From: a plasmid
Sequence record: NZ_CP097382.1
Direction: 5' to 3' (one strand)
DNA length: 64,000 bases
Shown here: positions 20,075-60,760 of the stretch, piece after piece
How positions within the stretch are numbered: position 1 is the stretch's first letter
Layout: each line of letters starts with the position of its first letter
Position numbers and translations under genes: made by a program
Notes under the pieces: model-generated
The model's database searches: none
Told to the model about the DNA's origin: nothing
The model's input: only the letters and a program-made list of their open reading frames with translations

Positions 20075-20404
20075 TTAATAAAAGTAGGTAGTATCGGAAG
20101 ATGCAATTATTGCTTTCAATAATATTGGGTTATCAGAATTCCCACCCTCCATTTCAACTAAAATATATTTAATTATTTTTTCAAGTGGAACATTTAAAAT
20201 AATTGATAAATTAAATAACGTACTCAAAGAAATTTTATTAACTCCACGTTCATATCGAGACATCTGTTGTTGTGATATATTTAATTTTCTTGCCAGTTCA
20301 TCTCCTGTCATTCCACGTTCTCTTCTAATTCTCTTAATAATTTTTCCGCAATAAGTGGAAATTTCATTTTCGTGACTAATAATTATATTTTTTTTAATTT
20401 GCAT
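20075..20404 (-). CDS. MrpJ-like HTH regulator
   Basis: …GDELARKLNISQQQMSRYERGVNKISLSTLFNLSIILNV…. It lies immediately upstream, on the same strand, of the mrpA-like pseudogene. The ORF table starts at a TTG (20422), but the ATG at 20404 is the probable start. Confidence 0.75.
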   Translation of the reverse strand: MQIKKNIIISHENEISTYCGKIIKRIRRERGMTGDELARKLNISQQQMSRYERGVNKISLSTLFNLSIILNVPLEKIIKYILVEMEGGNSDNPILLKAIIASSDTTYFY

Positions 20405-22813: not shown

Positions 22814-23348
22814 TTATTTTCAAACGCTAGGCGAGTTAATATATAAATCAATTTATTATAATATTTCATGGTGTTTTTATAAAATTAGCTTTTCATTATA
22901 AAAGCAGTCACAGTAAGGCCTAATAGGGTACTTGAGAACAAATAGGAGCATGGCCAAATAACCCAAAATAAGCGTATTTACTTGTTTTTATTTGTGCGTA
23001 TATTACAAAATAATACAAATTATAAATATGTGTTTATCCTAGATTAATGTTTTGTTTTTTAATTGTTTATGATTTATTATTCTGCGTTTGGCTTGTCAAT
23101 TTTTGACTAATTAAAATTTAAAAAAATTAACTAACCTAACTTACCTAATGATATGTAGGTAAAATTAAAGGGTATTAAAAATTGTAACATGAGAGTAATT
23201 AAGTAAAAGTTCGATAGGAGACGGTTTGATCTTTAAGTTTTACACCTTATAATTGTACCCGCTTGCTTAAACCCGTTATGAATTTTATATTTATTTAATT
23301 ACTAATTTTAAATTAGTAATTGTTTTCAATTACTGGAAAGATTACTAA

Positions 23349-29693: not shown

Positions 29694-30206
29694 ATGTGGG
29701 ACTATCTCATGAATAATACTCTCTTTGTTCGGTGTTTTATCGGCCTGCTTTGTTTATTAAGTCCGATATTATCACGAGCATTGGATGTCTATTTTACAGG
29801 AACATTGGTTGTCACGCCGCCAGAATGTACCGTGAATAGTGGTACTGTGGCAGATGTCAATTTTGGCGATATCCATGAAACACTGATTGACAATAGCAGT
29901 TATAAACGCACACGTATTGATTACACGTTAAATTGTACGAATGTCTATAGCAATGCATTAAAGATGACGGTCAGCTGGAACCCGATTACGCTCAATGGGC
30001 AAAATGTTATTCGTACTGGTCGGACGAATCTCGGGATAGCGGTTTATCAGAATTCGACTCGATTAAGTAATGGTGATGTTGTGAATTTCACTTATGGTAG
30101 CAATCAACCTGCACTTTATGCAGTACCAGTAAAACCCTCGGGAACGGTATTAACTGATGGCGGAAATTTTAATGGGACATTAACTTTTGTGGTGGATTAC
30201 CGTTAA
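29694..30206 (+). CDS. Fimbrial minor subunit, tandem paralog 2 of 4
   Basis: …PPECTVNSGTVADVNFGDIHETLIDNSSYKRTRID…NLGIAVYQNSTRLSNGDVVNFTYGS…LYAVPVKPSG…VVDYR, about 60% identical to paralog 1. Confidence 0.75.
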   Translation: MWDYLMNNTLFVRCFIGLLCLLSPILSRALDVYFTGTLVVTPPECTVNSGTVADVNFGDIHETLIDNSSYKRTRIDYTLNCTNVYSNALKMTVSWNPITLNGQNVIRTGRTNLGIAVYQNSTRLSNGDVVNFTYGSNQPALYAVPVKPSGTVLTDGGNFNGTLTFVVDYR

Positions 30207-47668: not shown

Positions 47669-48052
47669 ATGCAAATTCCCATTTTCGAAAGTCTAATTGC
47701 CTGTGGTTTTCCCAGTCCAGCTCAAGACCACGTTGAGCGTCGTTTATCGCTTGATGCCGAACTTATTCGTTATCCTGAAAGTACCTATTTTCTTCGCGCC
47801 TCTGGCGATTCTATGAAGGATGCGGGGATTTTTGACGGTGACTTATTAGTCGTTGAAAGTCACCTGACTGCCCGTCATGGGGAAATAGTGGTTGCTGAAT
47901 ACGATGGCGAATTCACCTGCAAGTACCTGCAAATCACACCGACTAAAGCGCTTATTCCTGCTAACAGTCAATTTCCCGCTATCCCCATCAATGACGATAC
48001 GGACGTGAAAATTTTCGGCGTTGTTCGTTATGCCGTGCATACCTGTCGGTAA
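47669..48052 (+). CDS. umuD: UmuD/MucA/RumA-like SOS mutagenesis protein (LexA-type self-cleaving peptidase fold)
   Basis: …[19 protein letters not shown]…[22 protein letters not shown]… carries the Ser-Lys dyad region (GDSM…K). Confidence 0.85.
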
Positions 48053-48057
48053 ATAAC

Positions 48058-49326
48058 ATGTTTGCGCTCATCGATGTCAATTCTATGTATACCTCCTGTG
48101 AATCCGTTTTCCGCCCCGATTTAAAAGGAAAGCCGATTATTTGCCTTTCGAATAATGATGGCTGTGTGATTGCGCGTTCGGCGGAGGCGAAGCCCTATAT
48201 CCGTATGGGAGCCCCTTATTTTGAAATTAAGCAGATAATCAAACAAAGGCAAGTGGCTGTATTTTCTTCAAATTATCCATTGTATGCCGATTTCAGTAAT
48301 CGATTTATGGCGGTGGTTGCTCAAATCGTGCCTCAAATTGAGGTTTACAGTATTGACGAGAGCTTTTGTAACCTGACGGGCATGAATACATTGTATTCAT
48401 GGCATGAACTTGGCCATAAATTAAAAGAGGATGTATTCCGGTGTGCACATTTGCCTGTCGGCGTGGGAATTTCCAGTACCAAAACGTTAGCTAAGCTAGC
48501 GAACCACGCCGCCAAAACGTGGAAGAATACAGGTGGTGTCGTCGATTTAAGTTCACCCAATCGTCAGAAAAAACTCATGGCACTCGTCCCGGTTGGGGAC
48601 GTTTGGGGAATAGGGCGTAAACTGGCAAAACGCCTGAATCAAAGCGGAATTGAAACTGCCTTGGATTTAAGTCGGTTGTCAACGACCCAGGCACGCCAAA
48701 TGTACTCAGTGGTATTAGAGCGAACCGTGCGCGAACTGAACGGTGAATCGTGTCTTCAGCTGGAAGAAATTGCGCCCGCTAAGCAGCAAATTATTTGCTC
48801 CCGTTCATTCGGCCATAAAGTGATGGATTATGAGTTAGTTCGCCAATCGGTGTGTGCCTTTGCTGAACGTGCAGCAGAAAAATTGAGTGAAGAAAAACAG
48901 TATTGTCGATTAGTCACATTGTGGGTGCAGAGTAGCCATTTTTCTCATCATGAGCCGCACTATTATCGACAAGAAACCCAAGCGCTCATTTATCCGACCC
49001 AAGATACACGCGAGATTATTCAGGCAGCCGTGGGGTTATTTGACAGACTTTGGCTTCCGAATGTGAAATACAGCAAAAGTGGCATATTACTCAGTGAATT
49101 TTCCCCTTCAGGGCAAGTGCAGCTGAATTTGTTTGAAAGTGGCCATGCTTTTCGCAAAAGTGGTGAACTGATGCAGACGATTGACCAGATTAATCGCGGA
49201 AAAGGGGCTATCTGGTTTGCAGGTCAGGGTGTTCAATCGCAATCGGCTTTATGGAAAATGAAGCAGCAATTTCTCTCGCCTCGCTGGACAACGCAATTCT
49301 CGGATATTCCTATCGTAAAATGCTAA
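48058..49326 (+). CDS. umuC: UmuC/MucB/RumB-like Y-family DNA polymerase (Pol V catalytic subunit)
   Basis: [18 protein letters not shown]…YSIDESF…[21 protein letters not shown]…, 422 aa, 5 bp after umuD. Confidence 0.9.
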
Positions 49327-49439
49327 TCATTGGGCGGTGATTTTTTGAGCAGAGTTGGTGTTCATTCATTAATCAGGCTATTAACCTTTTTATTAACAGG
49401 GCTATTTCAAGTTATCCACTGATTTTGTGGATACGCTTT

Positions 49440-50045
49440 TTTTGCGTTTCGGGGCAACGGCTTCATGCTGGCATTGAGCCAGGCTTAAGCCGAATGCCGG
49501 ATTGACCCCATTTACACACAGTTGGCGCAGGTTCCCCGTACACTTCCGTTCACGCGCCTGTTTGGGGCGCGTTCACTGGCTCGCCAAATGTGGAAAATGG
49601 GGACAACCGGCTTGAAAGGTCAACCGCTGCGCCTTTTTCCGTTTTCAACGTGGCGCAAAGGGCAGGGGTGCAGCTCCCTGCGGGACCGCCCCTGGTTCAC
49701 CGCTTAGCTACGCTAAGCGTTAATGGCGACTTGCCGTTCGCTTCTCTCGCTGCAAGTCGGGTGCTGTCATTTTCATCACCTGTGTGATTAATCTTTCATC
49801 GAGCACCTCCGCTTGGCCTAAAACATAGCCTCATCTCGTCATACAGCAAGCGTAAAGTGCACTCCACCAAAATTCTTGTCGCTGCGCTTTCCAACAATTT
49901 TGTCTCCGCCCTTGCTTCCTTCCTCGTCTCGGCTATGTACGGCCTTTGCAGCGGAGGAACTCAACGAAAGAAATCATTAACACGGTGGAGGATTCAAAAA
50001 TGTCATCACATCAAAACCTTGCAGCTCCAGAATCTAACGAAAGAA
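49440..50045 (+). repeat. Leading-region structured repeat, copy A (ssi/Frpo-like single-strand promoter candidate), extending into the first about 16 codons of the downstream ORF
   Basis: About 75–85% identical to 56385–56835 over roughly 450 bp. It contains nested inverted repeats (CAGGGG…TCCC-NNN-GGGA…CCCCTG and GCTTAGC-tac-GCTAAGC) and the block …AAACATAGCCTCA.CTCGTCAT.CAGCAAGCGTAAAGTGCACTCCA.CAAAATTCTTGTCGCTGCGCTTTCCAACAATTTTG.CTCCGCCCTTGCTTCCTTCCTC…. Confidence 0.7.
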
Positions 50046-50290
50046 GGGTTAAAAACCCACTGACGGATAGTCAGAAAGCCGATTTATTGCATTACATTGC
50101 GCCATTAACACGGTTATTGGATTTATTCGAGGGGGATATCTCACCTGAGTTGTACGACGAAGAAATCACGCTGCACAGTGATGCATACGATTCCAACAGT
50201 ATTTTTATGAAAGACGGTTATCCGATTGGCTTTAGTGACAATTTAAACAACATGTTCTATCTGCGTCCTGAACTGATTCAGGCATCTTAG
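50000..50290 (+). CDS. Small hypothetical protein (96 aa) whose start is supplied by repeat copy A
   Basis: MSSHQNLAAPESNERR…, whose N-terminus matches that of KlcA (MTQQQSLAAQESNER…) only because both lie inside the repeat. The remainder is unrelated. AGGATTCAAAAATG provides an RBS. Confidence 0.4.
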   Translation: MSSHQNLAAPESNERRVKNPLTDSQKADLLHYIAPLTRLLDLFEGDISPELYDEEITLHSDAYDSNSIFMKDGYPIGFSDNLNNMFYLRPELIQAS

Positions 50291-50353
50291 GTGCTAAGAG
50301 AGCCTTGTCACTCTCTTAGCAAAGACACATTAAAAACAATAGAGGTATCAATT

Positions 50354-52357
50354 ATGTCTACATTAGAAACTATCATTAACCCAAAACAACGTAAAGCAAA
50401 AAAAGGCACAAAATCCGCACAAACCGACGCGATTTATCAGGCATTGGACAGTATGGAAGCGCATGTATTGCCGTTATCGGCATTGGTACAGAGTGAACTC
50501 AATGTCCGTAAACGTCCAATCGACGAAAAAGCCTTGTCCGAACTGGCAGACAGTATTCAAGCGGTCGGGGTATTACAAAACTTGGTGGTTTACCCGATGG
50601 ACAATGACGTCTACGGGGTTGCTGCGGGTCAACGTCGTTTACTGGCGTTACAACAATTGGTGACAAAAGGGCATTTAGCGTCGAGTTTCCCTGTGCCTGT
50701 CAAAGTGGTTTCAGAGTCCGATGCGCTGATTGTTTCCCTGACGGAAAATAGCCAACGTGAAGCTATGCACCCAGCCGACCAACTTCATGCTTTTATCGAG
50801 CTACAAAAAACAGGCAAAAATGCGGCTGAAATCGGTGACTTATTAGGGGTCAGCACTCATCACGTTAAAAAATGTCTGCGTTTAGCAAACATGGCGCCTG
50901 AGCTGTTAGCCGAATTGGATGCGGATAATATTACCCTAGACCAACTGCAAGCGTTAGCCGGAACCCCTGACCATGACCGTCAAGTGATGGTGTGGAACAA
51001 TGCAATGGGTTGGAAAAAAGAGCCACCTTACTTACGTGAAGCGATTGAAGAAACCAAAACCCCCGTCGAAAATAATCGACTGGTGAAGTTTGTGGGGTTG
51101 GATGCCTACGAGCAAGCAGGGGGAACCCTTGAAATTGACCTATTTACCGAAGCAGGATTTATTGAAAACGCCCCGCTATTAGAAAAAATGGCACTAGATA
51201 AACTCAGTGCGTGTGCGGAACTGTTAGCGGATATTGAGGGTTGGCAGTTCGGTACTGCCCGTTTAGAGCGTCCGAGCTTTTACGGTAATGGTGGGGAAAC
51301 CTTGTCTCTCAGTCATGCGCCCGAGGCGGTCATTCCCCCTGAATTTGCGGATTTACTGGCTGAATTGCGTGCTCGTGAAGCGGATTTACGGGAACAAGCA
51401 TTAAATGCAGAGGAATATCATGAACAAATCGACCTTTGGCAAGCCGTGAATGATTGCGAAAATCAAATCGAGGGCATTGAAAGTCGGACTAAAAATCAAG
51501 CGTGGACAGCCGATGGAAAAGCCACAAAAGGCGTTGTTGTCTACCTTGACCGTGATGGAGAACCGTGTGTCATCCGTGGCGTCATTGACTTAGCACAGCA
51601 AGAGTCACCGTGCAGTGAAGCGGAAAGCGAAACGGAAAGTAGTGAAAGTGAGCAATCAACGACTCAAGTTGAGACGGTTTCTACCTACAGCGCAGCCTTG
51701 TGCAAAAGTCTTTCTTCGGAGCGCACATTAGCGGTTCAAGCGGCATTAACACAACATCCAAACGTGGCACTGGCGATTTTGGTTCATGATGCATGCATTC
51801 AAGTGTTTGGTTCACCGTATGCCAAAACTGCATTTAACATTAAGTTTTCGCTTTCTCAGGAAGAGTTACTCAAAAATGCCCCGACCGCCCAAGACAGTGA
51901 AGCATTGCAATTACTCAATACGCAATTTGAGTCGTGGTCAGCGCGTCTCCCTGACGCATGGCAAGCCGATTTTTCTTGGTTGTTGTCATGGGAGCAAGCG
52001 GATTTAGTCGCGTTACTGGCGTTTTGCTCTGCGCAAACGTTGAGTGAAGTCAATCATTATGCTCCGCACGATAACACGTTAGCCGAAGCCCTGCGCCCAA
52101 TTGAACAGGCAATTGCCTTTGATTTTCGTCAGTGGTGGCAGCCAACAAAAGCCAATTTCTTTGGGCGTATCAGTAAAGACCAAATCAGCGATTGTTTAGT
52201 GGATGCAGAGGCAGCAGATAAAGCCCTTGAAGCTGTCAAAATGAAGAAAGGGGATGCTGCGGAGTTGGCTGAAAATACCCTCAAAGATACCCATTGGTTG
52301 CCGAGCTGTTTTCTGAATGTAAACGCTGACACTCACCACACCGATAACGCGCAATAA
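50354..52357 (+). CDS. ParB-like nuclease-domain protein (large, about 668 aa; leading-region ParB homolog)
   Basis: An N-terminal ParB/Srx domain (…LSALVQSELNVRKRPIDEKALSELADSIQAVGVLQNLVVYP…GQRRLLALQQL…) plus an HTH (…GKNAAEIGDLLGVSTHHVKKCLRLA…) and a long acidic C-terminal region. The ATG at 50354 is preceded by AGAGGT. Confidence 0.75.
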   Translation: MSTLETIINPKQRKAKKGTKSAQTDAIYQALDSMEAHVLPLSALVQSELNVRKRPIDEKALSELADSIQAVGVLQNLVVYPMDNDVYGVAAGQRRLLALQQLVTKGHLASSFPVPVKVVSESDALIVSLTENSQREAMHPADQLHAFIELQKTGKNAAEIGDLLGVSTHHVKKCLRLANMAPELLAELDADNITLDQLQALAGTPDHDRQVMVWNNAMGWKKEPPYLREAIEETKTPVENNRLVKFVGLDAYEQAGGTLEIDLFTEAGFIENAPLLEKMALDKLSACAELLADIEGWQFGTARLERPSFYGNGGETLSLSHAPEAVIPPEFADLLAELRAREADLREQALNAEEYHEQIDLWQAVNDCENQIEGIESRTKNQAWTADGKATKGVVVYLDRDGEPCVIRGVIDLAQQESPCSEAESETESSESEQSTTQVETVSTYSAALCKSLSSERTLAVQAALTQHPNVALAILVHDACIQVFGSPYAKTAFNIKFSLSQEELLKNAPTAQDSEALQLLNTQFESWSARLPDAWQADFSWLLSWEQADLVALLAFCSAQTLSEVNHYAPHDNTLAEALRPIEQAIAFDFRQWWQPTKANFFGRISKDQISDCLVDAEAADKALEAVKMKKGDAAELAENTLKDTHWLPSCFLNVNADTHHTDNAQ

Positions 52358-52398
52358 TCAGACTGGAGACACTGCCCGAAAGGGCAGTGTGAATAATC

Positions 52399-52998
52399 AT
52401 GACAACGATTCCAAACCATTTAGCCCTTGTGCCGTTTAATGACCGTCAATATGCCGCAGCAAAAGCCATCCTTTTTGTCGAAGATAAAATGCAAAAAGGG
52501 CAATACCAAAAAAGCTATCCCTATGCGAGTGCGTTAATTCGATTTTTTACAGGGAATAAAGGGGCAATAACCGCAAAAGATTTGCACTCTACGTTGGTGT
52601 TATCTTTTGATGATAAACGTGAAATGCCGTCAAAAAATCGCTATCTTTCGGCTCTAGATACGTTTATTCAGTCCCGTGGTTATATTTGTCCATTGCCGTT
52701 ATGCGATCATCATGTGCGTGATTTTTTTCCTGAGCTGGATTACCGCGACCGTGAACGGCAGGGGCGAAAAATTCATTCTCAAGTACAGGTAGTGAGCCGT
52801 GCCCGACAAAAAGCCCAAATTAAAGCGCAGCAACAGTATCAAAATCGATTAGCCCAAGCCGAAATTGAGTTAGCCTTTATTACCCCCAGTGAGTTTAAAT
52901 CGTGGTACAACCGGTTTAATCATGATGGGATTGAAGAGTATGATTTGATTGAATTGCTTGTAAACTGGACGACGCGATTTAACAATTTAAACTTGTGA
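52399..52998 (+). CDS. Hypothetical protein (199 aa)
   Basis: Intact ORF co-directional with its neighbours. No recognised domain. Confidence 0.45.
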   Translation: MTTIPNHLALVPFNDRQYAAAKAILFVEDKMQKGQYQKSYPYASALIRFFTGNKGAITAKDLHSTLVLSFDDKREMPSKNRYLSALDTFIQSRGYICPLPLCDHHVRDFFPELDYRDRERQGRKIHSQVQVVSRARQKAQIKAQQQYQNRLAQAEIELAFITPSEFKSWYNRFNHDGIEEYDLIELLVNWTTRFNNLNL

Positions 52999-53128
52999 AA
53001 ATACCTTGATTTTGCCCCGTTGTGGTCGGCTCTCTTGGATTTCAATGAGGATATCGATACCCGATCATACGGTGAGCAATTACTGGATAATTATACCATT
53101 CCTAATAAATTAATCGGTAAAAAGGGCG

Positions 53129-53401
53129 TTGACCATGAATGAATGGAATGTGGTTTTACTCGAAACTGAAGACAGTTTGGTGCTAATGATGCGCGGTGAG
53201 CACACAAAAGAAACGGTCATTAACTCAGCAATTGCCGCGAATGAAATTTCACAGAGTGATCGAGAAACGTGGTTAGCCTGTGAAGATATCAATGTGGGTT
53301 ATTACAAGGCAGTGCCTAGAGAAGGGCATGTGACCTATTATTACCCCTCGAGTCAGGACGTTAAAGGCGCATTTTTGGCAACCAGTCTTGTGCTATTTTA
53401 A
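53129..53401 (+). CDS. Hypothetical small acidic protein (90 aa)
   Basis: Intact ORF. No recognised domain. Confidence 0.4.
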   Translation: MTMNEWNVVLLETEDSLVLMMRGEHTKETVINSAIAANEISQSDRETWLACEDINVGYYKAVPREGHVTYYYPSSQDVKGAFLATSLVLF

Positions 53402-53412
53402 GGATGAGATAA

Positions 53413-53799
53413 GTGAAAAATATCGAAAATGATGTTACTGAAATCACCGAACAGCAGCGGTTTGAGTTTGCCTATCAGGATTTATGCAAAATAAAACACG
53501 GCGTAAGAACACGCTATTTCGCTGAAAAAATGGGACTTTTCGTTTGGTTTTTGACGTTAACTGTCGGGTCTGTATGGCTGATCTTGGCGAATTTACCGAT
53601 TGTGGGCTTAGTTGTTCCCGTAGTACTGGTCTATTGGTGCTTGAGTATCACTCTTTTCATTAAATTAAAGTTATTTCTCATTTTAAATAGTGAATGGAAA
53701 CTTAATGCATTTATTACATCAATATACCCCAATGAATGTCGAATTATACCGCGCATTGCAAGAAAATGTTCGGTATACACCCGAACATTTTCTTGTTGA
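53413..53799 (+). CDS. Hypothetical membrane protein (128 aa, 2 predicted TM helices)
   Basis: Hydrophobic stretches …FVWFLTLTVGSVWLILANLPIVGLVVPVVLVYWCLSITLFI…. A second ORF (53690–53899) overlaps the 3' end in another frame. Confidence 0.35.
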   Translation: MKNIENDVTEITEQQRFEFAYQDLCKIKHGVRTRYFAEKMGLFVWFLTLTVGSVWLILANLPIVGLVVPVVLVYWCLSITLFIKLKLFLILNSEWKLNAFITSIYPNECRIIPRIARKCSVYTRTFSC

Positions 53800-54194
53800 G
53801 CTTAAGATCTGGTTAGCAAAAGAAAGTCAGTATTTCGGTGTAAAACCAGTCTATACGGTTAAAAAGAGATTGAGTTTTACTGAGCGAGTGATTAAGTAAG
53901 TTACAGCTTTAATTTTAATAACAATGAGTTAAGAAATTTTTATCATAAACATAAAATAACCCCTTATGGGTTCCTACGGCAGCTCGACGTTATCGAGCTG
54001 TCGCCTACACTCCAACTCCATTCGTTTTAGGAATGGGTTTCCGCAGAGCCGCAAGCGTCTCTGTCCTTCGGATAGCAAGCGAAACCTAACTGCACGGCAT
54101 TTCGTGCTTCGCACGGCCGTTAAAGACGCCACGCGTTGCGTGTCGGCCGATTGCCTCCTCACCCGACGGTTATTTTCTTACTATCAGCCCATTC

Positions 54195-54340
54195 GCTAGG
54201 GCTTAAACATAGCCTCAACTCGTCATCCAGCAAGCGTAAAGTGCACTCCAGCAAAATTCTTGTCGCTGCGCTTTCCAACAATTTTGCTTCCGCCCTTGCT
54301 TCCTTCCTCGTCTCAGCTATGCACGCCCTTGCCGCGACTG
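54195..54340 (+). repeat. Leading-region structured repeat, partial copy B
   Basis: It shares the conserved core …GGGCTTAAACATAGCCTCAACTCGTCATCCAGCAAGCGTAAAGTGCACTCCAGCAAAATTCTTGTCGCTGCGCTTTCCAACAATTTTGCTTCCGCCCTTGCTTCCTTCCTCGTCTCAGCTATG… with copies A and C and diverges on both sides. Confidence 0.7.
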
Positions 54341-54462
54341 AACTGACAGTAAGATGAATTAACACTTTCAAAGAGAACTACGAGGCCATCGGTGAACGTC
54401 AACACCGCCACGCCAAAACCTCCAGAAAGATGAGTTAAAAGCCAAAAACAAGGAGTATCAAC

Positions 54463-54714
54463 ATGAATTATCAAATTTTTATTGCGGAAACCCATAAGAA
54501 AAATGTGACAGGGCAAACGGATGACGTTTATCACTTCAATTCCATTGCGGAATTCTTCACTTTTCTGAAAAAAACGAAATTCGCGGAAAAAATGAACATG
54601 AATTACCAATATGCCTTAACCGATGGAACAAAAAACACCGATTTAACTTACTGCGAAATTGAAAACGCCAACCACCTTAAACCGTTTAAAAAACAGGTTC
54701 GCCAATACCGTTAA
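54463..54714 (+). CDS. Hypothetical protein (83 aa)
   Basis: It is preceded by GGAG. No recognised domain. Confidence 0.4.
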   Translation: MNYQIFIAETHKKNVTGQTDDVYHFNSIAEFFTFLKKTKFAEKMNMNYQYALTDGTKNTDLTYCEIENANHLKPFKKQVRQYR

Positions 54715-54809
54715 AGCGACCTATTGAATAGCGCGAAATCGTAACGCGCTATTCAATATCGAGCCAGTTCGATATTGACCCACCACTAAATCATAAAAGG
54801 AGAAAGAGT

Positions 54810-55148
54810 ATGTATCACGCATTAGAGCAGTACGAAACAGACAGTTACTCAGAAACCCAAAGCGCGGAATTGATGTATTGGATAGGACGTGAACAAGCGG
54901 CTAAAACTGCCCCGACAGAGATTACCTTAATGCAATTTATGGATGCGTTATCCGTTATGCCCCCGCTGGATTGGCAAGGCAATAACAATACGGAGTCCTT
55001 TAAATTGCAAGAGATGGTTTTAGGGAACGTGACTGACATTTTTGTCAAAGAGGACGAACGTTATTTTACGTTTCGGGATGTATTAACGTTATCCCATGCG
55101 CAAATTATTTCGCGTGTGCGTTGTGCTGGATTGCTGGCACAACAATGA
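54810..55148 (+). CDS. Hypothetical acidic protein (112 aa)
   Basis: It is preceded by AAAGGAG. No recognised domain. Confidence 0.45.
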   Translation: MYHALEQYETDSYSETQSAELMYWIGREQAAKTAPTEITLMQFMDALSVMPPLDWQGNNNTESFKLQEMVLGNVTDIFVKEDERYFTFRDVLTLSHAQIISRVRCAGLLAQQ

Positions 55149-55237
55149 AAAAAGCAGGCTTGCGCCTGCTTAATCCGTGCCTTGAATGACTTTAGCGAGG
55201 AACTCAAGGCATCAACTCACTCAAAGGAGTAGCTCCT

Positions 55238-55480
55238 ATGAACTCAACAATCATGGCATACGCTGCCAACCCTGTAAAGCCCCAAATGCCCGCCCTGTCA
55301 AAACGTCGGGTCGTGCGTCACGATATGACAATAAGTGAAATTGAGCCGTGTTATCGGTCAATGGCGCGGCATATCGACAAACAACTTAAACGAAAACAGC
55401 CCGTTCGCATCCCTGCAATGAATAACCAGTGTTTGGGGCAACTTTTGCGTTGTTTAGAACTGCGTAAATCGTGGATTTAA
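55238..55480 (+). CDS. Hypothetical protein (80 aa)
   Basis: It is preceded by AAAGGAG and is basic. Confidence 0.35.
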   Translation: MNSTIMAYAANPVKPQMPALSKRRVVRHDMTISEIEPCYRSMARHIDKQLKRKQPVRIPAMNNQCLGQLLRCLELRKSWI

Positions 55481-55531
55481 GTTAAATCACTGCCCCTGTT
55501 TTTGTTTCAGGGGCAGTTCTGGAGCGTCGAT

Positions 55532-56341
55532 ATGTCACAATTGAGTTTTTTTGATGTGGATTTAAGCCAACCCGCGAAAGGAGCCAGCCCTATTATCTCA
55601 GGTTTGCCCAGTAAGATAGACACAAAGACAGACAAAATAGTCGAGAAAGCAAACCTAACCACGGTTAACGCCAAATCAAAGCGCGATTTTCACAAGGAAT
55701 TTATTCAATTATTTAATCAAACGGCACGTTATCACAGTCGCTTAGACGTATTTCGAGATTTTATTCATGTTGCCGCGATTTCATTAGAAAACAGCGTAAA
55801 ACAGTGTCCTGAGTTGGAACAAACTTACTTTAACGTGATTGCGCGTTATGAAAGAGCCGATTTAGATGTATTCGCCAAATTAATGGCAATTTGTGTTAAT
55901 GCCTTAGACAGTCAAGCGACTGATTTTTTAGGGGAACTCTTTATGTCATTAGAACTTGGCGAAGGGGCATGGGGGCAGTTTTTCACCCCATTTCATATCA
56001 GCCAGCTAATGGCAAATTTTATCATTGGTGATTGCAGCAAGATAATTGAAAAAAATGGCTATATCAGTGTGTGCGAGCCTACGTGCGGGGCGGGCGGAAT
56101 GGTGATTGCCTGTGCAAATTCTGTTTTACAACAAGGCTATAACTCACAAACGCAAATGATTGCGGTGTGTACGGATATTGATGAAGTTGCCGCCCGAATG
56201 TGTTACGTCCAACTGGCATTATTGGGGATACCTGCGATTGTGAATATCGGCAACAGCTTGACCTTGGAAGTTCGCCAAACACTGTATACCCCGATGTTAA
56301 TGTTAAACTCATTCCGCTTTAAATCCTTTCTTACAGCCTAA
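55532..56341 (+). CDS. Orphan N6-adenine DNA methyltransferase-like protein (N6_Mtase fold, possibly truncated/atypical)
   Basis: …WGQFFTPFHISQLMANFII… (the FxTP target-recognition lead-in of HsdM/gamma-class MTases) and motif I …VCEPTCGAGGMVIAC…. No NPPF/Y motif IV is visible before the ORF ends, where repeat copy C begins. There is no adjacent restriction or specificity gene. Confidence 0.55.
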   Translation: MSQLSFFDVDLSQPAKGASPIISGLPSKIDTKTDKIVEKANLTTVNAKSKRDFHKEFIQLFNQTARYHSRLDVFRDFIHVAAISLENSVKQCPELEQTYFNVIARYERADLDVFAKLMAICVNALDSQATDFLGELFMSLELGEGAWGQFFTPFHISQLMANFIIGDCSKIIEKNGYISVCEPTCGAGGMVIACANSVLQQGYNSQTQMIAVCTDIDEVAARMCYVQLALLGIPAIVNIGNSLTLEVRQTLYTPMLMLNSFRFKSFLTA

Positions 56342-56384
56342 TTCACGTTATTTTCAAGGGGATTTATTCCCCTATTTGCGCATC

Positions 56385-56835
56385 GGCTTAATCCTGGCAT
56401 CGAGCCAGGCTCAATCCGACAAAGACAACCCCTGCGCCTTTTAACGCTGACGCGTGGCGCAAAGGACAGGGGTGCAAGCTCCCTAAGGGAGCCGCCCCTG
56501 ATAAACCGCTTAACGTTGTTAAGCTCAAAGGACGCCTTGCGGTTCGATTCTCTCGCCGCAAGTCGGGTTGCGTCATTTTCAGCCACTGTGTTGTTAATCT
56601 TTCGCCAAGCCCCTCCGCTCGGGCTTAAACATAGACTCAATTCGTCATCCAGCAAGCGTAAAGTGCACTCCAGCAAAATTCTTGTCGCTGCGCTTTCCAA
56701 CAATTTTGCCTCCGCCCTTGCTTCCTTCCTCATTTCGTCTATGTACGCCCTTTGCAGCGAAGGAACTCAACGAAAGAAATCATTAACCCAAAGGAGACAC
56801 TAAAATGACTCAACAACAAAGCCTTGCAGCTCAAG
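56385..56835 (+). repeat. Leading-region structured repeat, copy C (ssi/Frpo-like), extending into the klcA start
   Basis: It is homologous to copy A and includes compensatory stem changes (GCTTAAC-gttg-GTTAAGC versus GCTTAGC-tac-GCTAAGC in copy A). It ends in …AAGGAGACACTAAAATGACTCAACAACAAAGCCTTGCAGCTCAAGAATCTAACGAAAGAA. Confidence 0.7.
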
Positions 56836-57284
56836 AATCTAACGAAAGAAATGGAAAAGACGAAACTGTAATCACTGCTATTGAGGTGAAGAACGAGCGA
56901 GCCCGTTTAAAATTTTTACCTTCAAAATTAGGGCGGTATTGCATTGCATTTGAAAATGCAATCTATAACTGGATGACTCGGAATGCTGTAGCCTATAACG
57001 GCGGGTATTGGGATTTTTATACGTTGTCGAATAACGGTTTTTATTTGCAACCGACAAAAGGCTATATGCTCACCTCACCAAACGGCTTTATGGACGATGT
57101 TAGCGCCCAAGAAGCGGGGATCATTGTGACCTTAATGATGTTAAGTCATTTCTCATTCGTCACTGATGAAAAAGGGCACACAGAAGAATGTGAGCGTATT
57201 TCTGCTTATTTTCATCAACTACGGGATTTTATTTTCACATTACCCCCTGAATCACAAACAAAGATATTGAATGCCATTGATTAA
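56805..57284 (+). CDS. klcA: ArdB/KlcA-family anti-restriction protein
   Basis: …RLKFLPSKLGRYCIAFENAIYNWMTRNAVAYNGGYWDFYTLSNNGFYLQP…QEAGIIVTLMMLSHF…YFHQLRDFIFTLPPESQTKILNAID aligns with RK2 KlcA (…RLDFLPTYFG…YNGAYWHYYALSDGGFYMAP…AAGIVATLFALGQL…YHFLRGFAAGHPEAAAIYRAID). Confidence 0.85.
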   Translation: MTQQQSLAAQESNERNGKDETVITAIEVKNERARLKFLPSKLGRYCIAFENAIYNWMTRNAVAYNGGYWDFYTLSNNGFYLQPTKGYMLTSPNGFMDDVSAQEAGIIVTLMMLSHFSFVTDEKGHTEECERISAYFHQLRDFIFTLPPESQTKILNAID

Positions 57285-57350
57285 TTAAATCCTGCGCAAG
57301 TCTCGGGCTTGCGATTAATCAAACTTCATTAATTAAAGAGAGAAAAAATT

Positions 57351-58220
57351 ATGGAACAGCAAACATTATTATCGGTTGGTCAGGTTGTTTATACAAATTT
57401 ATATAATCATGGCTTGGGAGTGATCACTCAAATCCATGGAGAACAAAAACCAGATACAGTGACGAATCTATGTAATGTCATTGTAAGTGGAGGCAACGCA
57501 GAATTTGATATTGTATTTTACAATGGTGATAAATCAAATCGCTTACCAGAATCTGTTTTAAGAGGGGGGATTCAGTGGGAAGTTAAAAATGAAATTGTTG
57601 ATAATGAAACAATTGAATCATTAATTAAACAATCAGAAGAATTCGAACAAACGGAAAAATCTGAGGAAGAAAAAAAACAAATCGAATTTAATCAAGGTGT
57701 CGAATTTCAAAAAAATAATAATCAATATTCACACTTAACCCAGATAACCGCTAATTCAGACAATAAAGTAAAAATAGTGGGTAAAAATATTCGTGCAGAG
57801 TTAAAAAAACATTTTCCAAAAACTAAATTTTCAGTTCGTAAACAATATTACAGTTCTTATTATGTATCATGGACAGATGGCCCGACAGTGGATGAAGTCG
57901 ACTCGATTGTCAAAAAATATAAAACGTCACGCTTCGATTGCTATACTGATTACTCTTACAATGAAAGCTCACCATTTAATATGGTTTATGGTGGTGCTGA
58001 TTATGTTTTTACAAATCGTCATTACAGTGATGAAATAATCGCGTTGGCAATCAAATCACTTATTGATAAATATGGCGAGTCTTATGAGTTTGATACGACG
58101 TTAATGACCGTTGAAAATTATCATCAAGGTAAGTTATACAAAATTGGACGAGAACAAATTATTGGAAATGATGGGATAGGTGGGGAAATTGGTCGAGAAT
58201 TAAGAAAAACCAGTTATTAA
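57351..58220 (+). CDS. Hypothetical protein (289 aa)
   Basis: It is the last leading-region ORF before the oriT-proximal genes. It contains …YYVSWTDGPTVDEVDSIVKKYKTSRFDCYTDYSYNESSPFNMVYGGADYVFTNRHYSDEII…. No confident family assignment. Confidence 0.45.
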   Translation: MEQQTLLSVGQVVYTNLYNHGLGVITQIHGEQKPDTVTNLCNVIVSGGNAEFDIVFYNGDKSNRLPESVLRGGIQWEVKNEIVDNETIESLIKQSEEFEQTEKSEEEKKQIEFNQGVEFQKNNNQYSHLTQITANSDNKVKIVGKNIRAELKKHFPKTKFSVRKQYYSSYYVSWTDGPTVDEVDSIVKKYKTSRFDCYTDYSYNESSPFNMVYGGADYVFTNRHYSDEIIALAIKSLIDKYGESYEFDTTLMTVENYHQGKLYKIGREQIIGNDGIGGEIGRELRKTSY

Positions 58221-58328: not shown

Positions 58329-58787
58329 TTAGTTATTTTTTTTAATGTTAAGATAAATGTGATAGACCTCAAGCGCATATTGATTTCTTTTTTGTTCTTG
58401 AGCCTCGGATTTTTTCAACCCTGCATTATAAGCCCCTACGCCTTTCCAGATATCCCCTTGTATACGAATAAATTTAGCGAGATAAAACGCGCCCGTATAA
58501 ATATTCATACACGGATCTAACCTTAATTGATTTTCGGTAATGCCATGCTGTGCTAATTCGTTAAAGTTTTGCGAATGAATTTGCATTAAGCCAATAGCGT
58601 ATCGCGTCGGTGAAGCTTGGTTAATCGCATTTGGTTGGAATGAGCTTTCACGAAAGGCAACTGCGCGTAATAAATCAGGGTCAATTTGATAATCATTTCC
58701 TGCTTTATCATAGCAATCAAACGAAAATGAAAAAGGCGAAAAAAATAACGCAATGAGAATACAGATCATTCGCATATAAAACCCCAT
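58329..58787 (-). CDS. Lytic transglycosylase (SLT domain), conjugation-associated (F orf169/geneX, P19-like)
   Basis: 152 aa with a signal peptide and the SLT catalytic region …AVAFRESSFQPNAINQASPTRYAIGLMQIHSQN…YNAG…. It lies adjacent to the oriT-like region, as in F-like plasmids. Confidence 0.8.
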   Translation of the reverse strand: MGFYMRMICILIALFFSPFSFSFDCYDKAGNDYQIDPDLLRAVAFRESSFQPNAINQASPTRYAIGLMQIHSQNFNELAQHGITENQLRLDPCMNIYTGAFYLAKFIRIQGDIWKGVGAYNAGLKKSEAQEQKRNQYALEVYHIYLNIKKNN

Positions 58788-59249
58788 TTAATAATAAGTT
58801 CTCTTAGCTCAGAATCGCCCATTTTAATAAAAAAATAAAGCACTATTTAAATGCAAGCCAAAAGAAAGGAGGAGCAATAAATATGCTCCTCTGAAAGAAA
58901 GAACTCACACACTACGCAAAATTTCATTTCGCAAGAATTTATCATAAAATCAGTGTGTTAATTAAAAATAAATGGGTGAAAAATTTATAATTTGTAGTGC
59001 TAAGCCCATTGCTAGCCCAATGATAGCGTCTATGTGTGGGCTAAATAGATGCACTTTGTGTGTATTGTGAATAATATCAAATAAATAAAATTTCTTACTA
59101 AATTTAGTGGTCTAATGGTGGTCTATTGTAATATACTGTTTATATGTTATTTATTTTTTATGATTGTATTTGATGGGCTAGTTGTGGGCTGTATGAGATT
59201 GCATCACAGCCCACAACTAGCGGCTAGTGAAAACAAAGGAAATAAAAGA
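58788..59249. other. Candidate oriT / traM promoter region
   Basis: An AT-rich, ORF-free interval between the lytic transglycosylase gene and traM. It carries direct repeats TGCTAAGCCCA/TGCTAGCCCA (about 59010–59035) and an inverted repeat at 59177–59221. Confidence 0.5.
59177..59221. promoter_or_regulatory. Perfect 16-bp inverted repeat GCTAGTTGTGGGCTGT-N13-ACAGCCCACAACTAGC upstream of traM
   Basis: Read directly from the sequence. It ends 28 bp before the traM ATG, and TraM-type proteins autoregulate through inverted-repeat sites in this position. Confidence 0.5.
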
Positions 59250-59624
59250 ATGCCTCGTCAACATATATATATGAAGCAAAAAACATTAGATGGTATCCGT
59301 AATTTAGTGGATAAACGGAAAGCCGATGGCGCAGACGCAAACATTTCAAGTGTTGGGTCTGAGTTATTGGATATAGGATTGCGTGTTATTGAGAATTTAG
59401 AAAAAGAAAAAGAAGGGGATGATGGGTTATCTTTAGAGGAGCGTTATAAAAAACAATTATTGGAAGAAGTGACTAAATCACGTCAATGTATTCAAATTTT
59501 ATTCAAAATGATGTTTGATTTAACAGAAATCAAAGAAGACAATCGGTATAATTATCGAGAGTACGTTGAGGATTTTAAAAACAGAACTCAATCTATACTA
59601 GATGAATTTTTTCCAGAAAGCTAG
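59250..59624 (+). CDS. traM: TraM relaxosome accessory protein
   Basis: MPRQHIYMKQKTLDGIRNLVDKRKADGADANISSVGSELLDIGLRVIENLEKEKEG…EFFPES parallels F TraM (…VNLYISNDAYEKINAIIEKRRQEGAREKDVSFSATASMLLELGLRVHEAQ…ERFFPKNDDE). AAGGA lies upstream. The ORF-table version (59115) over-extends. Confidence 0.8.
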   Translation: MPRQHIYMKQKTLDGIRNLVDKRKADGADANISSVGSELLDIGLRVIENLEKEKEGDDGLSLEERYKKQLLEEVTKSRQCIQILFKMMFDLTEIKEDNRYNYREYVEDFKNRTQSILDEFFPES

Positions 59625-59950: not shown

Positions 59951-60088
59951 TTTAATCTGTAAATATAGGTATATTTATCTTAAGTAATTAATATTACTTA
60001 AGTCAATAAATTTAAGAATCGCCCAATAAAGGAGTCCTACCTCCCTTATTGAGCTAAACACATAACCGAAGCCTGAGAGGATGGTTAC

Positions 60089-60760
60089 ATGTCTATTCAT
60101 GATCCTATTGATCTCGATGCGATAAAACAAGCTGTTTTTCGCAAAAACCTGCCTGATTTTTTAAAACATGCTTATTTTTGGATGATAACTGACCTAAATA
60201 ACCATGTTTTATCCTGTAGCTCACCTGAAAATGTTAACTCAATTTTAAACTCCCAAAAAATTCAGCAAGCCAATAATGGTTTTACTCTTTCATCCATTGA
60301 ATTAGTTATCCCTACACATGGGCATATTGCAATAGCATTAGAGGTCATTTCTTATCAAATGTTCATAAATAACCAATTAGTCATCTTGAAAATATACAAT
60401 ATGCTGAAAAATACGAATGTCAAATTTAGAATATTTCATGCTGATTTTTTTATAAGAAATGATCGATTTGATAATAAATTAGACTTTATTAATTCGATTA
60501 ATCGATTGAAATATAAAAAACCATGGGAAAGTCTAACCGATCACGAATGGGCTGTTGCATGGTTAGTTATTCATCGTTTAACAAACCCTGAGATATCTAA
60601 TGTTATGGATAAAAGTATTAATACTATTAAATCTACAGTTAGTCGTATTTTAGGTATTTACAAACTAGAACTTTATGATCGAAATTTATTATCTGATGTT
60701 GGATTATATTTAAATTGGGATTGTTATGTTCCATTATCTCTTATAAAAAATACTGTATAA
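60089..60760 (+). CDS. traJ: TraJ-like transfer activator (LuxR/GerE-type C-terminal HTH)
   Basis: 223 aa located between traM and traY. The C-terminal …LTDHEWAVAWLVIHRLTNPEISNVMDKSINTIKSTVSRILGIYKL… is a LuxR-type HTH. F-family TraJ proteins are very divergent, so the call rests on position and size. Confidence 0.55.
   Translation: MSIHDPIDLDAIKQAVFRKNLPDFLKHAYFWMITDLNNHVLSCSSPENVNSILNSQKIQQANNGFTLSSIELVIPTHGHIAIALEVISYQMFINNQLVILKIYNMLKNTNVKFRIFHADFFIRNDRFDNKLDFINSINRLKYKKPWESLTDHEWAVAWLVIHRLTNPEISNVMDKSINTIKSTVSRILGIYKLELYDRNLLSDVGLYLNWDCYVPLSLIKNTV

Follow-up and report, generated by a model that had tools for sequence, protein, structure and literature searches.

The leading region of an F-like conjugative plasmid of Providencia contains three long hairpin-forming repeats (copies A, B, and C), which are very probably divergent Frpo/ssi (class 1) single-stranded-DNA promoters. 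Frpo/ssi promoters turn on anti-defence and establishment genes during plasmid entry into a new cell. An element of this kind is expected in a leading region; its sequence family is not yet described and is invisible to BLAST. The repeats combine a constant position and orientation with a conserved, strand-biased structure, asymmetrically conserved promoter-like boxes, and homology to known Frpo elements.

Genes in the window (the whole 64-kb stretch of DNA analysed) follow the F-like order umuDC, cassettes, SLT, nic, and traM/J/A, and the window stops short of traI (Table 1). The sequence TTTTGCGTAGTGTGTG is identical over 16 nt to the IncFII (R100-type) oriT of an E. coli plasmid. Because nic lies on the minus strand, this strand is the transferred one and the template for all cassette genes, and the leading region comprises everything below about 58906. 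The sequence-only reading that preceded this analysis had proposed the same gene orientation and oriT position, and both were confirmed: the cassette genes are all on the plus strand. Counting against the promoter interpretation, 55 of 58 related plasmids are typed as non-mobilizable by PLSDB.

Table 1. Repeats, cassettes, and oriT-flanking features of the leading region.
Feature	Position	Strand	Remarks
Repeat copy A, full modular unit	49437–49999	-	Small hairpins, 121-nt module, and long hairpin
Copy A distal hairpin, CGGCTT..GCCAGG..AAGCCG	49458–49493	-	Counterpart in C at 56383–56418
121-nt module	49494–49614	-	In A, not in C; reappears in repeat copies of related Providencia plasmids
Copy A, three small conserved hairpins	49663–49759	-	49663–49694, 49701–49719, 49727–49759
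Copy A long imperfect hairpin (Frpo-like core)	49790–49985	-	Covariance model 234 bits, E 6e-58
Copy A -10-like hexamer, TATGTT	49822–49827	-	3' arm, 16 nt past -35
Copy A -35-like hexamer, TTGCTG	49844–49849	-	3' arm of transferred strand, read from sequence
Cassette after A	50000–53799	+	Includes small ORFs
96-aa ORF	50000–50290	+	Cassette A
ParB-N/HTH protein, 688 aa	50291–52357	+	Cassette A
PsiA-like protein	52399–52998	+	Cassette A
Repeat copy B, long hairpin	54174–54368	-	Covariance model 207 bits and folds
Copy B boxes	54206–54211, 54228–54233	-	-10 TATGTT, -35 TTGCTG
Cassette after B	54463–56341	+	
Small ORFs	54463–54714, 54810–55148, 55238–55480	+	Cassette B
N6-methyltransferase-domain protein	55502–56341	+	Cassette B
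Repeat copy C, full unit	56363–56804	-	
Copy C small hairpins	56383–56418, 56467–56500, 56508–56524	-	
Copy C long hairpin	56596–56791	-	Covariance model 233 bits
Copy C boxes	56628–56633, 56650–56655	-	-10 TATGTT, -35 TTGCTG
Cassette after C	56805–58220	+	
KlcA/ArdB-type antirestriction protein	56805–57284	+	Cassette C
LPD29/LPD30 protein	57351–58220	+	Cassette C
SLT	58329–58787	-	One flank of nic region
oriT nic region, TTTGCGTAGTGTGT/GAG	58904–58920	-	R100-type nic sequence
traM	59115–59624	+	Other flank of nic region

The three copies lie where the sequence-only reading had placed them, all in the same orientation and each just upstream of a plus-strand cassette, and a covariance model finds exactly these three in the 64-kb window. 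They have in common a 145-nt core with 90–92% identity (49802–49946 in A, 54186–54330 in B, and 56608–56752 in C). Copies A (49686–49985) and C (56492–56791) share in addition a gapless block of 300 nt (85% identity) and further similar blocks upstream of it. The alignment of about 450 bp claimed for this pair stood over about 440 nt, but split by the 121-nt module that has no counterpart in C. The repeat overlaps the first codons of the ORFs following A and C by about 60 nt (about 20 codons). The repeats had been called GC-rich, which holds in direction (G+C of 0.49–0.56 vs 0.41–0.48 in adjoining sequence), although the difference is modest. The nested inverted repeats CAGGGG..TCCC-N3-GGGA..CCCCTG and the 7-bp stems that had been singled out are present; in copy A, the hairpin at 49663–49694 is CAGGGG..CCCCTG and that at 49701–49719 is CGCTTAGC-TAC-GCTAAGCG. 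The emphasis on these small upstream hairpins was nevertheless misplaced, as the functional heart would be the hairpin of about 190 nt that holds the shared core. Degenerate and truncated copies of the repeat also exist; the degenerate ones, on related plasmids, count against the promoter interpretation.

On the transferred strand, each copy forms this imperfect hairpin of about 190 nt; that of copy A has an A/T-rich apical stem (49868–49878 paired with 49892–49902) and a loop at 49879–49891. Copy B had been described as partial, which is correct for its sequence, since its flanks differ and its lower stem is unrelated to those of A and C; however, pairing is kept, and the covariance model covers the same full-length hairpin from end to end. 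DNA folding of the minus strand gave z-scores of -5.3 (A), -3.9 (B), and -3.2 (C) against dinucleotide shuffles, none of which folded as well as the repeat (0/100). In all intact copies, folding favoured the minus strand over the plus strand by 6–14 kcal/mol (-37.8 vs -30.0 kcal/mol in A, -36.2 vs -24.7 in B, and -35.5 vs -24.7 in C). Copies in the window contain 5–7 G-T pairs and no A-C pairs on the minus strand; these counts rest on a structure derived from that strand, and the independent energies of the two strands agree with them. Within Providencia, 12 of 53 pairs show compensatory changes, a number reached by none of 500 shuffles (4.3 ± 1.5 pairs) and compared with 0–6 pairs in slid controls. 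Across families, compensatory pairs rise to 41 of 53 and 93% of cells are paired (79% when shuffled, 41–51% when slid), counts that are inflated because this alignment was fitted to the structure of the model. The compensatory difference noted earlier between the stems GCTTAGC/GCTAAGC (A) and GCTTAAC/GTTAAGC (C) is real, the pair being A-T in 7 of 10 copies and G-C in the other 3. The structure is conserved from copy to copy.

The 3' arm of the hairpin carries -35-like and -10-like hexamers and would be the non-template strand. On this arm, 13 of 14 copies have TATGTT, whereas its 5'-arm partner varies (ACATAG, GCATAG, TCATAG, ACAGAG, or ACAGAA), and TTGCTG is found in 12 of 14 at a constant spacing of 16 nt from the -10. 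The plus-strand duplex equivalent of the -10 of copy A is TATGTA (49934–49939). A scan of the duplex for σ70-like sites returned none in the repeats. The hexamers themselves are weak (3/6 matches for the -35 and 4/6 for the -10), which counts against a promoter, and the hairpin form would therefore fail the same consensus scan.

Homology searches connect the repeats with Frpo elements. With nhmmer, Frpo* 5, a member of the Frpo* 5–7 group of candidate single-strand promoters that Samuel et al. 2024 themselves rated as of low certainty (PMC11541004), matched copies A (E 8.6e-13), C (1.7e-11), and B (4.4e-10), and F ssiD matched B (4.5e-6) and C (5.4e-6); the Frpo queries had no significant matches in the window beyond A, B, and C. 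A covariance model built solely from Providencia copies found elements in four further plasmid groups, each matched over its whole length and invariably on the transferred strand. These included Frpo*-type elements of Citrobacter, Leclercia, and Serratia (E 1e-15 to 2e-4), the full set of 3 canonical Frpo copies from an IncF plasmid of E. coli (3e-5 to 1e-4), and ColIb-P9 ssi1–3 (3e-5 to 0.013). All 29 model matches above noise lie on the transferred strand, in one orientation to oriT and directly upstream of genes; in F-like plasmids of Citrobacter and Leclercia, the related elements precede the same ParB/psi and small-ORF/N6-methyltransferase cassettes. A point against the promoter interpretation is that similarity to canonical Frpo is marginal (E 1e-6 to 1e-2) and partly reached via the bridging, low-certainty Frpo* family. 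Blastn between the repeat and Frpo* 5–7 detected nothing in either direction, and this divergence explains why the family was not recognised in the sequence-only reading, whose Frpo/ssi interpretation held in all its testable parts (context, strand-biased hairpin, covariation, boxes, and homology).

From these features we infer promoter activity, with a start site, duplex shut-off, and priming, that would operate as follows. During conjugation, the minus strand would be nicked at about 58906 and enter the recipient 5' first, so that the stretch between 58.9 and 47 kb would come in early and single-stranded. Each repeat would snap back into its hairpin, the 3' arm offering a non-template strand with an A/T-rich tract at the apex, TTGCTG, a purine-rich spacer of 16 unpaired nt, and TATGTT, and host σ70 RNA polymerase would bind this pseudo-duplex. 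Transcription is predicted to start near plus coordinates 49945 (A), 54325 (B), and 56751 (C), and the polymerase would proceed along the 5' arm and enter the neighbouring cassette (ORF96/ParB-like/PsiA, the small ORFs and methyltransferase, and KlcA with LPD29/30, respectively), so that establishment and anti-restriction proteins could be made before the complementary strand exists. Synthesis of that strand would abolish the hairpin and leave a poorer duplex promoter (TTGCTT-16-TATGTA or TATGCA, without the T at -7), making expression transient. These transcripts may in addition serve as primers for the complementary strand, a role shown for F Frpo.

Some of these observations would also fit ordinary double-stranded modules, that is, an upstream-operon terminator, a conventional promoter, and a 5' UTR duplicated with the cassettes by recombination, the hairpin being incidental or an RNA element. 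The repeat does hold the ribosome-binding region and the start of two downstream ORFs, its small hairpins stand directly after upstream genes (one in C, 56557–56572, is weakly terminator-like), and the plus strand has TTGCTT-16-TATGTA. We consider this unlikely because all plus-strand promoter-like sites in the repeats fall below the scan threshold, the -10 is conserved on the minus-strand 3' arm and not on the plus-strand arm read in the duplex, and homologues of the repeat have been shown to act as single-stranded promoters; selection on the pairing of about 190 nt, the compensatory changes, and the minus-strand G-T bias would also be left unexplained. Quite unlikely, too, is that the repeats are priming sites only, recruiting RNA polymerase, primase, or PriA for complementary-strand start with no role in downstream expression. 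F Frpo was first isolated as ssiD, whose RNA primes DNA synthesis (Masai and Arai 1997, cited through PMC9849209 and PMC12672017), every copy comes with several further small hairpins, and multiple priming sites would be useful on a long incoming strand. However, every copy lies immediately 5' of a cassette in sense orientation, 55–140 nt from a Shine-Dalgarno sequence and ATG, a placement kept across genera that priming alone does not require, and the homologous elements of F and pESBL drive early expression in vivo (PMC9849209, PMC12672017). Single-strand promoter activity and priming do not conflict; priming would add to the former rather than replace it.

That the structure acts in RNA (as a long 5' UTR, insulator, or processing hairpin in plus-strand read-through, or as a minus-strand antisense RNA gene) seems very unlikely. 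A transcript spanning both arms would form any DNA hairpin too, read-through is plausible as leading genes stand in long co-directional arrays, and covariation tests do not tell DNA from RNA; but the plus strand, which is the mRNA sense, is the less stable one because the G-T pairs of the minus strand become A-C mismatches in it. Moreover, no minus-strand terminator-like sites overlap the three hairpins, no Rfam family matches at them, and nothing at the RNA level obviously accounts for the conserved unpaired spacer and the -35/-10 geometry. Least likely, with a probability close to negligible, is that selfish or neutral palindromes of the REP/ERIC/MITE kind landed here by chance. The unit is indeed an imperfect palindrome of 150–200 nt with several copies per replicon, and the degenerate and truncated copies would suit such an origin. 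Against it, a strict pattern of the element had 0 matches in 185,579 species-representative genomes (one genome per species), and a looser one had 7 in unrelated phyla, at about chance level. The core is thus not a REP/ERIC-type chromosomal repeat; in the plasmid collection it is confined to 58 plasmids of Providencia, with about 2 sites per record. The uniform strand, orientation, and upstream placement of the 29 matches also speak against chance insertion, and terminal repeats or target duplications are not evident in the sequence of the copies.

As single-strand promoters, the repeats can be compared with several known systems. Their closest sequence relatives are Frpo* 5–7 (nhmmer E 1e-12 to 1e-10; covariance model 45–69 bits), taken from Salmonella enterica AAEPNF010000010.1 (supplementary file 4 of PMC11541004), whose family occurs in at least 1,320 plasmids of Klebsiella, Enterobacter, Citrobacter, and Serratia. 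Hairpin length and layout are alike, with common blocks on one arm (GTTAAT..GAGTTCC..GCAAAGGGC..GGAAGGAA..GGGCGGAGACAAAA) and on the other (TTTTGG.GGAGT.CA.TT.AC..CTTG..GATGACGA), and both precede small-ORF/N6-methyltransferase and ParB/psi cassettes on F-like plasmids. In contrast to Frpo* 5–7, the Providencia repeat is restricted to Providencia, has a lower G+C (0.48 vs 0.56–0.61) and two extra bases in the -35 region, and carries a near-consensus -10 (TATGTT, compared with TACGAC in Frpo* 5).

The class 1 elements F Frpo (ssiD) and ColIb-P9 ssi1–3 reportedly go back to Masai and Arai 1997 and Bates et al. 1999. F Frpo1/Frpo2 (ssiD) and ssi1–3 are assigned to class 1 of single-stranded-DNA promoters (PMC9849209; PMC12672017), and Frpo-type function is experimentally established in F and IncI1 (PMC9849209, PMC11541004, PMC12672017). 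Like the Providencia repeats, they occupy the transferred strand of the leading region, where several copies each precede a cassette, and form a long, imperfect hairpin whose stability is greater on that strand (known Frpo elements were folded too), with an apical AAAA/TTTT stem, -35/-10 boxes on the 3' arm, and additional small hairpins at the 3' end. The homology is weak but significant, sequence similarity being marginal. Canonical elements are GC-richer, fold more stably, and precede ssb/psiB and ygeA/B, whereas the Providencia copies precede ParB-like/PsiA, methyltransferase, and KlcA cassettes, and ssb and psiB are absent from the leading region of the Providencia plasmid. Activity has been demonstrated for the F and IncI1 elements, while the Providencia repeat is known from sequence alone. 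In pESBL/IncI1, single-strand promoters of class 2 (before ardA and klcA) and class 3 (before M.EcoGIX) are reported to have no sequence homology to class 1 (PMC12672017). Like copies B and C, which are putative promoters, they are transferred-strand hairpins that precede antirestriction and methyltransferase operons. In ColIb-P9, the Providencia model matches only the three class 1 sites and nothing in the ardA, klcA, and methylase upstream regions, which suggests that Providencia uses an element of class 1 type for its klcA and methyltransferase cassettes.

Single-strand promoters determine which plasmid genes are expressed during a plasmid's first minutes in a new cell, ahead of host defences, and repeated Frpo-like elements that punctuate anti-defence cassettes are already established. 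In the Providencia window, each of the repeat copies A, B, and C stands at the head of its own cassette in the leading region, with genes for establishment or anti-restriction (see table), and from their anatomy and homology we infer that these repeats are putative divergent class-1 (Frpo/ssi-type) single-stranded-DNA promoters. The window was similar only to Providencia plasmids (58 records, 88–92% identity over a 7.9-kb block). Between the SLT transglycosylase gene and traM, the minus strand reads AATTTTGCGTAGTGTGTGAGTTC, and the 16-mer TTTTGCGTAGTGTGTG recurs unchanged in the oriT of an E. coli IncFIA/FII plasmid, where it likewise lies between traM and SLT. In F and R100, the relaxase cuts after GTGT and the nic-bearing strand goes over 5′ to 3′ with the side away from traM first. 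Applied to the minus-strand nic sequence, this rule makes the minus strand the transferred one; the leading region therefore comprises the coordinates below ~58906, and the incoming strand templates every + strand gene in it. The sequence-only reading had argued from gene orientation for expression from the incoming single strand, and it was correct: nic is on the minus strand and the cassette genes are on the + strand. Copies A, B, and C, themselves on the minus strand, each immediately precede a cassette of + strand genes, which is the placement of class 1 elements.

Coordinates of the repeats, hairpins, genes, and related elements (in the window unless a plasmid is named)
Feature	Coordinates	Strand	Remark
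Repeat copy A	49437-49999	-	
Repeat copy B	54174-54368	-	
Repeat copy C	56363-56804	-	
Long hairpin A	49790-49985	-	
Long hairpin B	54174-54368	-	
Long hairpin C	56596-56791	-	
300-nt direct repeat (A, C)	49686-49985; 56492-56791		85% identity
145-nt three-copy repeat (A, B, C)	49802-49946; 54186-54330; 56608-56752		90–92% identity
Segment missing in C	49494-49614		121 nt
Repeat entering coding sequence (after A, after C)	49997-50056; 56802-56861		
UmuD and UmuC	47669-49326		Pfam
96-aa ORF		+	cassette after A
ParB-N/HTH protein	50291-52357	+	cassette after A; Pfam
PsiA-like protein	52399-52998	+	cassette after A; Pfam
Small ORFs		+	cassette after B
AS-pc01 match	55149-55243	-	Rfam
Terminator-like hairpin	55152-55171	-	8 pairs (5 G-C)
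N6_Mtase-domain protein	55502-56341	+	cassette after B; Pfam
Antirestrict (KlcA/ArdB) protein	56805-57284	+	cassette after C; Pfam
LPD29/LPD30 protein	57351-58220	+	cassette after C; Pfam
SLT transglycosylase	58329-58787	-	Pfam
nic sequence	58904-58920	-	16 nt identical to IncFII oriT
TraM	59115		Pfam
traJ 5′ UTR and FinP matches	59982-60095	+ and -	Rfam, sub-threshold
LuxR-type TraJ-like protein	60089		Pfam
TraA	61308		Pfam
ColIb-P9 ssi1-3	20029-20227; 22925-23122; 29954-30152		covariance model matches
Element before KlcA-type gene, Citrobacter plasmid NZ_CP029732.1 (L007)	7481-7639		159 nt
Extra copy, Providencia plasmid L004	8477-8671		degenerate or internally deleted
Extra copies, Providencia plasmid L001	5246-5437; 12864-13059		degenerate or internally deleted
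Extra copy, Providencia plasmid L005	7708-7868		degenerate or internally deleted
Extra copy, Providencia plasmid L006	14286-14446		degenerate or internally deleted

Other features of the leading and transfer regions were also recorded. [quoted passage not shown] The PsiA-like ORF encodes 199 aa, against 240–247 aa for psiA in two related Providencia plasmids (L004 and L006), and judging from this length it may be truncated. Inside cassette B, a weak Rfam match (34.9 bits against a gathering score of 79, E 0.007) to AS-pc01, the antisense RNA of the IncFII plasmid pHK01, coincides with a well-formed terminator-like hairpin on the minus strand and may be an antisense RNA; a hok/sok-type module made up of this match and the adjacent 50-aa ORF was rejected because the ORF is not Hok-like. 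Sub-threshold Rfam matches to the traJ 5′ UTR (36 bits) and FinP (32 bits) directly upstream of the TraJ-like gene suggest F-type FinOP antisense control in this plasmid. By PLSDB/MOB-suite typing, 55 of 58 related plasmids from Providencia count as non-mobilizable, and in these related plasmids traM, traJ, traY, traA, traL, traE, traK, traB, traV, and traC adjoin an F-type oriT. The explanation is either a relaxase that the typing scheme overlooks or a transfer defect in many of the plasmids.

A repeat search of the 48–60 kb interval returned a 300-nt pair of direct repeats in A and C and a 145-nt repeat present in all three copies. The A/C similarity continues upstream in smaller co-linear blocks to 49437 and 56363, respectively, and downstream for ~60 nt into the ORFs that follow. 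MAFFT alignment showed that A and C are co-linear apart from a 121-nt segment missing in C, which is a recurring module in the copies on related plasmids. The small inverted repeats listed in the sequence-only reading were found in A and C, and its compensatory pair in the 7-bp stem (G-C to A-T) is real, with A-T in 7 and G-C in 3 of ten copies. Its description of the repeats as GC-rich needs tempering, since their G+C is raised only modestly (0.49–0.56 vs 0.41–0.48 nearby). Where the repeat enters coding sequence, the ~20 N-terminal residues are common to the ORF of 96 aa that follows A and the KlcA-like protein that follows C (MSSHQNLAAPESNERRVKN and MTQQQSLAAQESNERNGKD), and similar ORF starts occur downstream of copies on related plasmids. 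This stretch could be a leader or translation-initiation module, or merely the edge of the duplication. Related Providencia plasmids also carry extra copies, one of them upstream of a relBE toxin-antitoxin pair, with hairpins that fold poorly (−15 to −18 kcal/mol); the repeat family is therefore turning over.

Folding of the minus strand as DNA produced one long imperfect hairpin of ~190 nt per copy, with several small hairpins on its 3′ side. The fold z-scores were −5.3, −3.9, and −3.2 for A, B, and C, and no shuffled sequence folded as well. The minus strand was more stable than the plus strand in A (−37.8 vs −30.0 kcal/mol), B (−36.2 vs −24.7 kcal/mol), and C (−35.5 vs −24.7 kcal/mol), and likewise in all intact copies on six related plasmids. 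This advantage of 6–14 kcal/mol is due to G-T pairs on the minus strand, 5–7 in each of A, B, and C, with no A-C pairs. The sequence that B has in common with A and C is limited to the 145-nt core, and its lower stem, of unrelated sequence, still pairs. In an alignment of 14 Providencia sequences, 12 of the 53 pairs showed compensatory changes, compared with 4.3 ± 1.5 in shuffled alignments (0 of 500 reached 12) and 0–6 with slid partners. This covariation rules out that the structures are not conserved between copies, an outcome that the sequence-only reading had named as fatal to its proposal. In a cross-family alignment, 41/53 pairs were compensatory and 93% of cells could pair (79% when shuffled, 41–51% when slid), although this alignment was fitted to a covariance model, which tilts the figures toward the structure. 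Thus, z-scores, strand bias, and covariation agree on the long imperfect stem-loop in the single transferred strand that characterizes class 1. The small hairpins upstream of it are conserved, with a few compensatory changes; they might belong to the promoter, terminate or insulate the cassette before them, or serve as primosome sites. PriA-type primosome assembly sites (n′-pas or phiX-type ssi) are short hairpins at which PriA-dependent priming occurs on single strands coated with SSB.

Relatives of the repeats were sought with a 351-nt core by blastn (word size 11) against 72,556 plasmids, which returned matches in Providencia plasmids only (58 records, 120 places). The reverse search used Frpo* 5, one of the new candidates that Samuel et al. 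2024 (PMC11541004) tabulate in a supplement alongside the reference Frpo/ssi sequences; it hit at least 1,320 plasmids of Klebsiella, Enterobacter, Citrobacter, and Serratia and no Providencia plasmid. BLAST-level homology to known Frpo was thus rejected, blastn being blind in both directions, and profile methods were therefore needed. With nhmmer, Frpo* 5 matched the minus strand of A, C, and B (E 8.6e-13, 1.7e-11, and 4.4e-10), Frpo* 7 produced matches at E ~1e-6, and F ssiD (Frpo) matched B and C (E 4.5e-6 and 5.4e-6); no other place in the window scored. An HMM made from four canonical Frpo sequences gave only marginal matches (E 0.002–0.11), and was less informative than the single F ssiD query and the covariance model. 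This model, which was built from Providencia copies only, placed just three copies in the window, each of them on the minus strand; its matches elsewhere covered the full length and lay without exception on the transferred strand. For F (AP001918), R64 (AP005147), and ColIb-P9 (AB021078), BLAST-derived loci of an IncF plasmid (L015) and of NC_002122 (L018) were used as stand-ins. The model recovered elements of the Frpo* type in F-type plasmids of Citrobacter, Leclercia, and Serratia (E 1e-15 to 2e-4), each of the three canonical Frpo copies in the E. coli IncF plasmid (E 3e-5 to 1e-4), and ColIb-P9 ssi1-3 (E 3e-5 to 0.013), so that homology to F Frpo and the ColIb-P9 elements is present at a weak level of similarity. 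In the Citrobacter and Leclercia plasmids the related elements precede small-ORF/N6-methyltransferase and ParB/psiB/psiA cassettes, and this synteny supports the homology. No Rfam family matched the repeats at the E-value or gathering threshold.

Single-strand promoters of classes 2 and 3 have been described in pESBL and IncI1 plasmids upstream of ardA and klcA (class 2) and M.EcoGIX (class 3) (PMC12672017). In the ColIb-P9 leading region, the model matched ssi1-3 only, with no match upstream of ardA, klcA, or the M.EcoGIX-type methylase operon, which places the repeats outside class 2/3 as judged from these upstream regions. In a Citrobacter plasmid, a 159-nt element matched by the Providencia model (E ~6e-5 to 2e-4) lies just upstream of a KlcA-type antirestriction gene, so that among enterobacterial F-like plasmids, too, some may have hairpins resembling class 1 in front of klcA.

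If the transferred strand is to template the downstream genes, the template has to be the 5′ arm of each hairpin, and the non-template strand its 3′ arm, read from loop to base. In A, B, and C, this reading gives an A/T-rich apical stem (CAAAATTG..loop..AAGAATTTTG) followed by TTGCTG, a 16-nt spacer, and TATGTT; the two hexamers correspond to a −35 and a −10, spaced as in a promoter and carried by the non-template arm, as in class 1. Both hexamers lie within short duplex segments (GCAAG/CTTGC and CATAGCC/GGCTATG), and the spacer is unpaired because it is purine-rich on both arms. The match to the consensus is only 7/12 (−35 3/6, −10 4/6), and the predicted starts would be at ~49945, ~54325, and ~56751. 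An alternative −35, TTTACG, was rejected because 23 nt would separate it from the −10. Thirteen of the 14 copies have TATGTT, opposite a variable partner arm (ACATAG, GCATAG, TCATAG, ACAGAG, ACAGAA), so that the + strand duplex −10 reads TATGTA, TATGCA, TATGAC, or TCTGTG, without T at −7. Conservation of one arm is what base-specific sigma-70 recognition of a non-template −10 would predict, and the T-less duplex −10 would offer a simple reason for a weaker duplex form.

Experimental work on plasmids of the F and IncI1 groups (PMC9849209, PMC11541004, PMC12672017, and Masai and Arai 1997, cited therein) provides the mechanism that, on the grounds of anatomy and homology, may also apply to the Providencia repeats: the hairpin would extrude on strand entry, sigma-70 transcription would proceed from it toward oriT, and conversion to duplex would silence it, with a possible role in priming. 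Four other explanations each account for a subset of the observations, and each conflicts with the strand bias, the conservation of one arm, the orientation, or the distribution of the repeats. A duplicated duplex promoter module is one; a consensus scan called no duplex promoter in the repeats. A priming-only site and an RNA element are two others. The fourth is a REP/ERIC/MITE-type repeat, of the kind scattered in many copies over chromosomes, in either orientation and without relation to transfer functions; the sequence-only reading had said that a known REP/ERIC-type chromosomal repeat would defeat its proposal. A strict 41-nt pattern that matches all 14 Providencia copies had 0 matches in one genome each of 185,579 species, and a looser pattern had seven in the same species-representative genomes, in unrelated phyla and at about chance level; together with a core confined to Providencia plasmids and the single orientation relative to oriT of all model matches above noise, these scans argue against such a repeat. 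The Frpo/ssi-type promoter interpretation, which the sequence-only reading had reached by resemblance to Frpo/ssi elements, agrees with position, structure, promoter boxes, and homology alike.

We also consider it possible, and on balance doubtful, that the Providencia repeats form a distinct sub-class of single-strand promoter with a sequence-readable on/off switch and a portable expression module. In such a switch, the non-template arm may keep a near-consensus TATGTT with the template arm free to drift, so that the duplex form reads TATGTA, TATGCA, or TCTGTG and is missing the critical T at −7, and the conserved, purine-rich spacer between −35 and −10 may be a permanently unpaired bubble. 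The module may consist of the upstream hairpins, as an insulator or as primosome sites, together with the single-strand promoter, a 5′ UTR, and an N-terminal leader of ~20 common codons (M-x-x-x-Q-x-LAA-x-ESNER); if so, it could be placed before any cassette.

Catalogues of single-strand promoters have been compiled mainly with BLAST, starting from five reference sequences of E. coli and Shigella, an approach to which the Providencia branch is invisible, and the literature searched contained no mention of Frpo together with Providencia. The Frpo family thus reaches, undetected by BLAST, the F-like plasmids of Morganellaceae, many of them from clinical Providencia isolates. That a structure-aware model from one diverged branch recovers the canonical elements, bridging Frpo sub-families, offers a practical route to wider annotation, and the Providencia repeats lend weight to the Frpo* candidates that Samuel et al. 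rated "low-certainty". The conserved −10 of the 3′ arm, set against its drifting partner, is a natural experiment on which hairpin arm the polymerase reads. Known Frpo/ssi elements display the same strand asymmetry in fold stability, and the canonical 330-nt Frpo/ssi units contain counterparts of the small Providencia hairpins. The current picture of leading-region biology is unchanged by these repeats.
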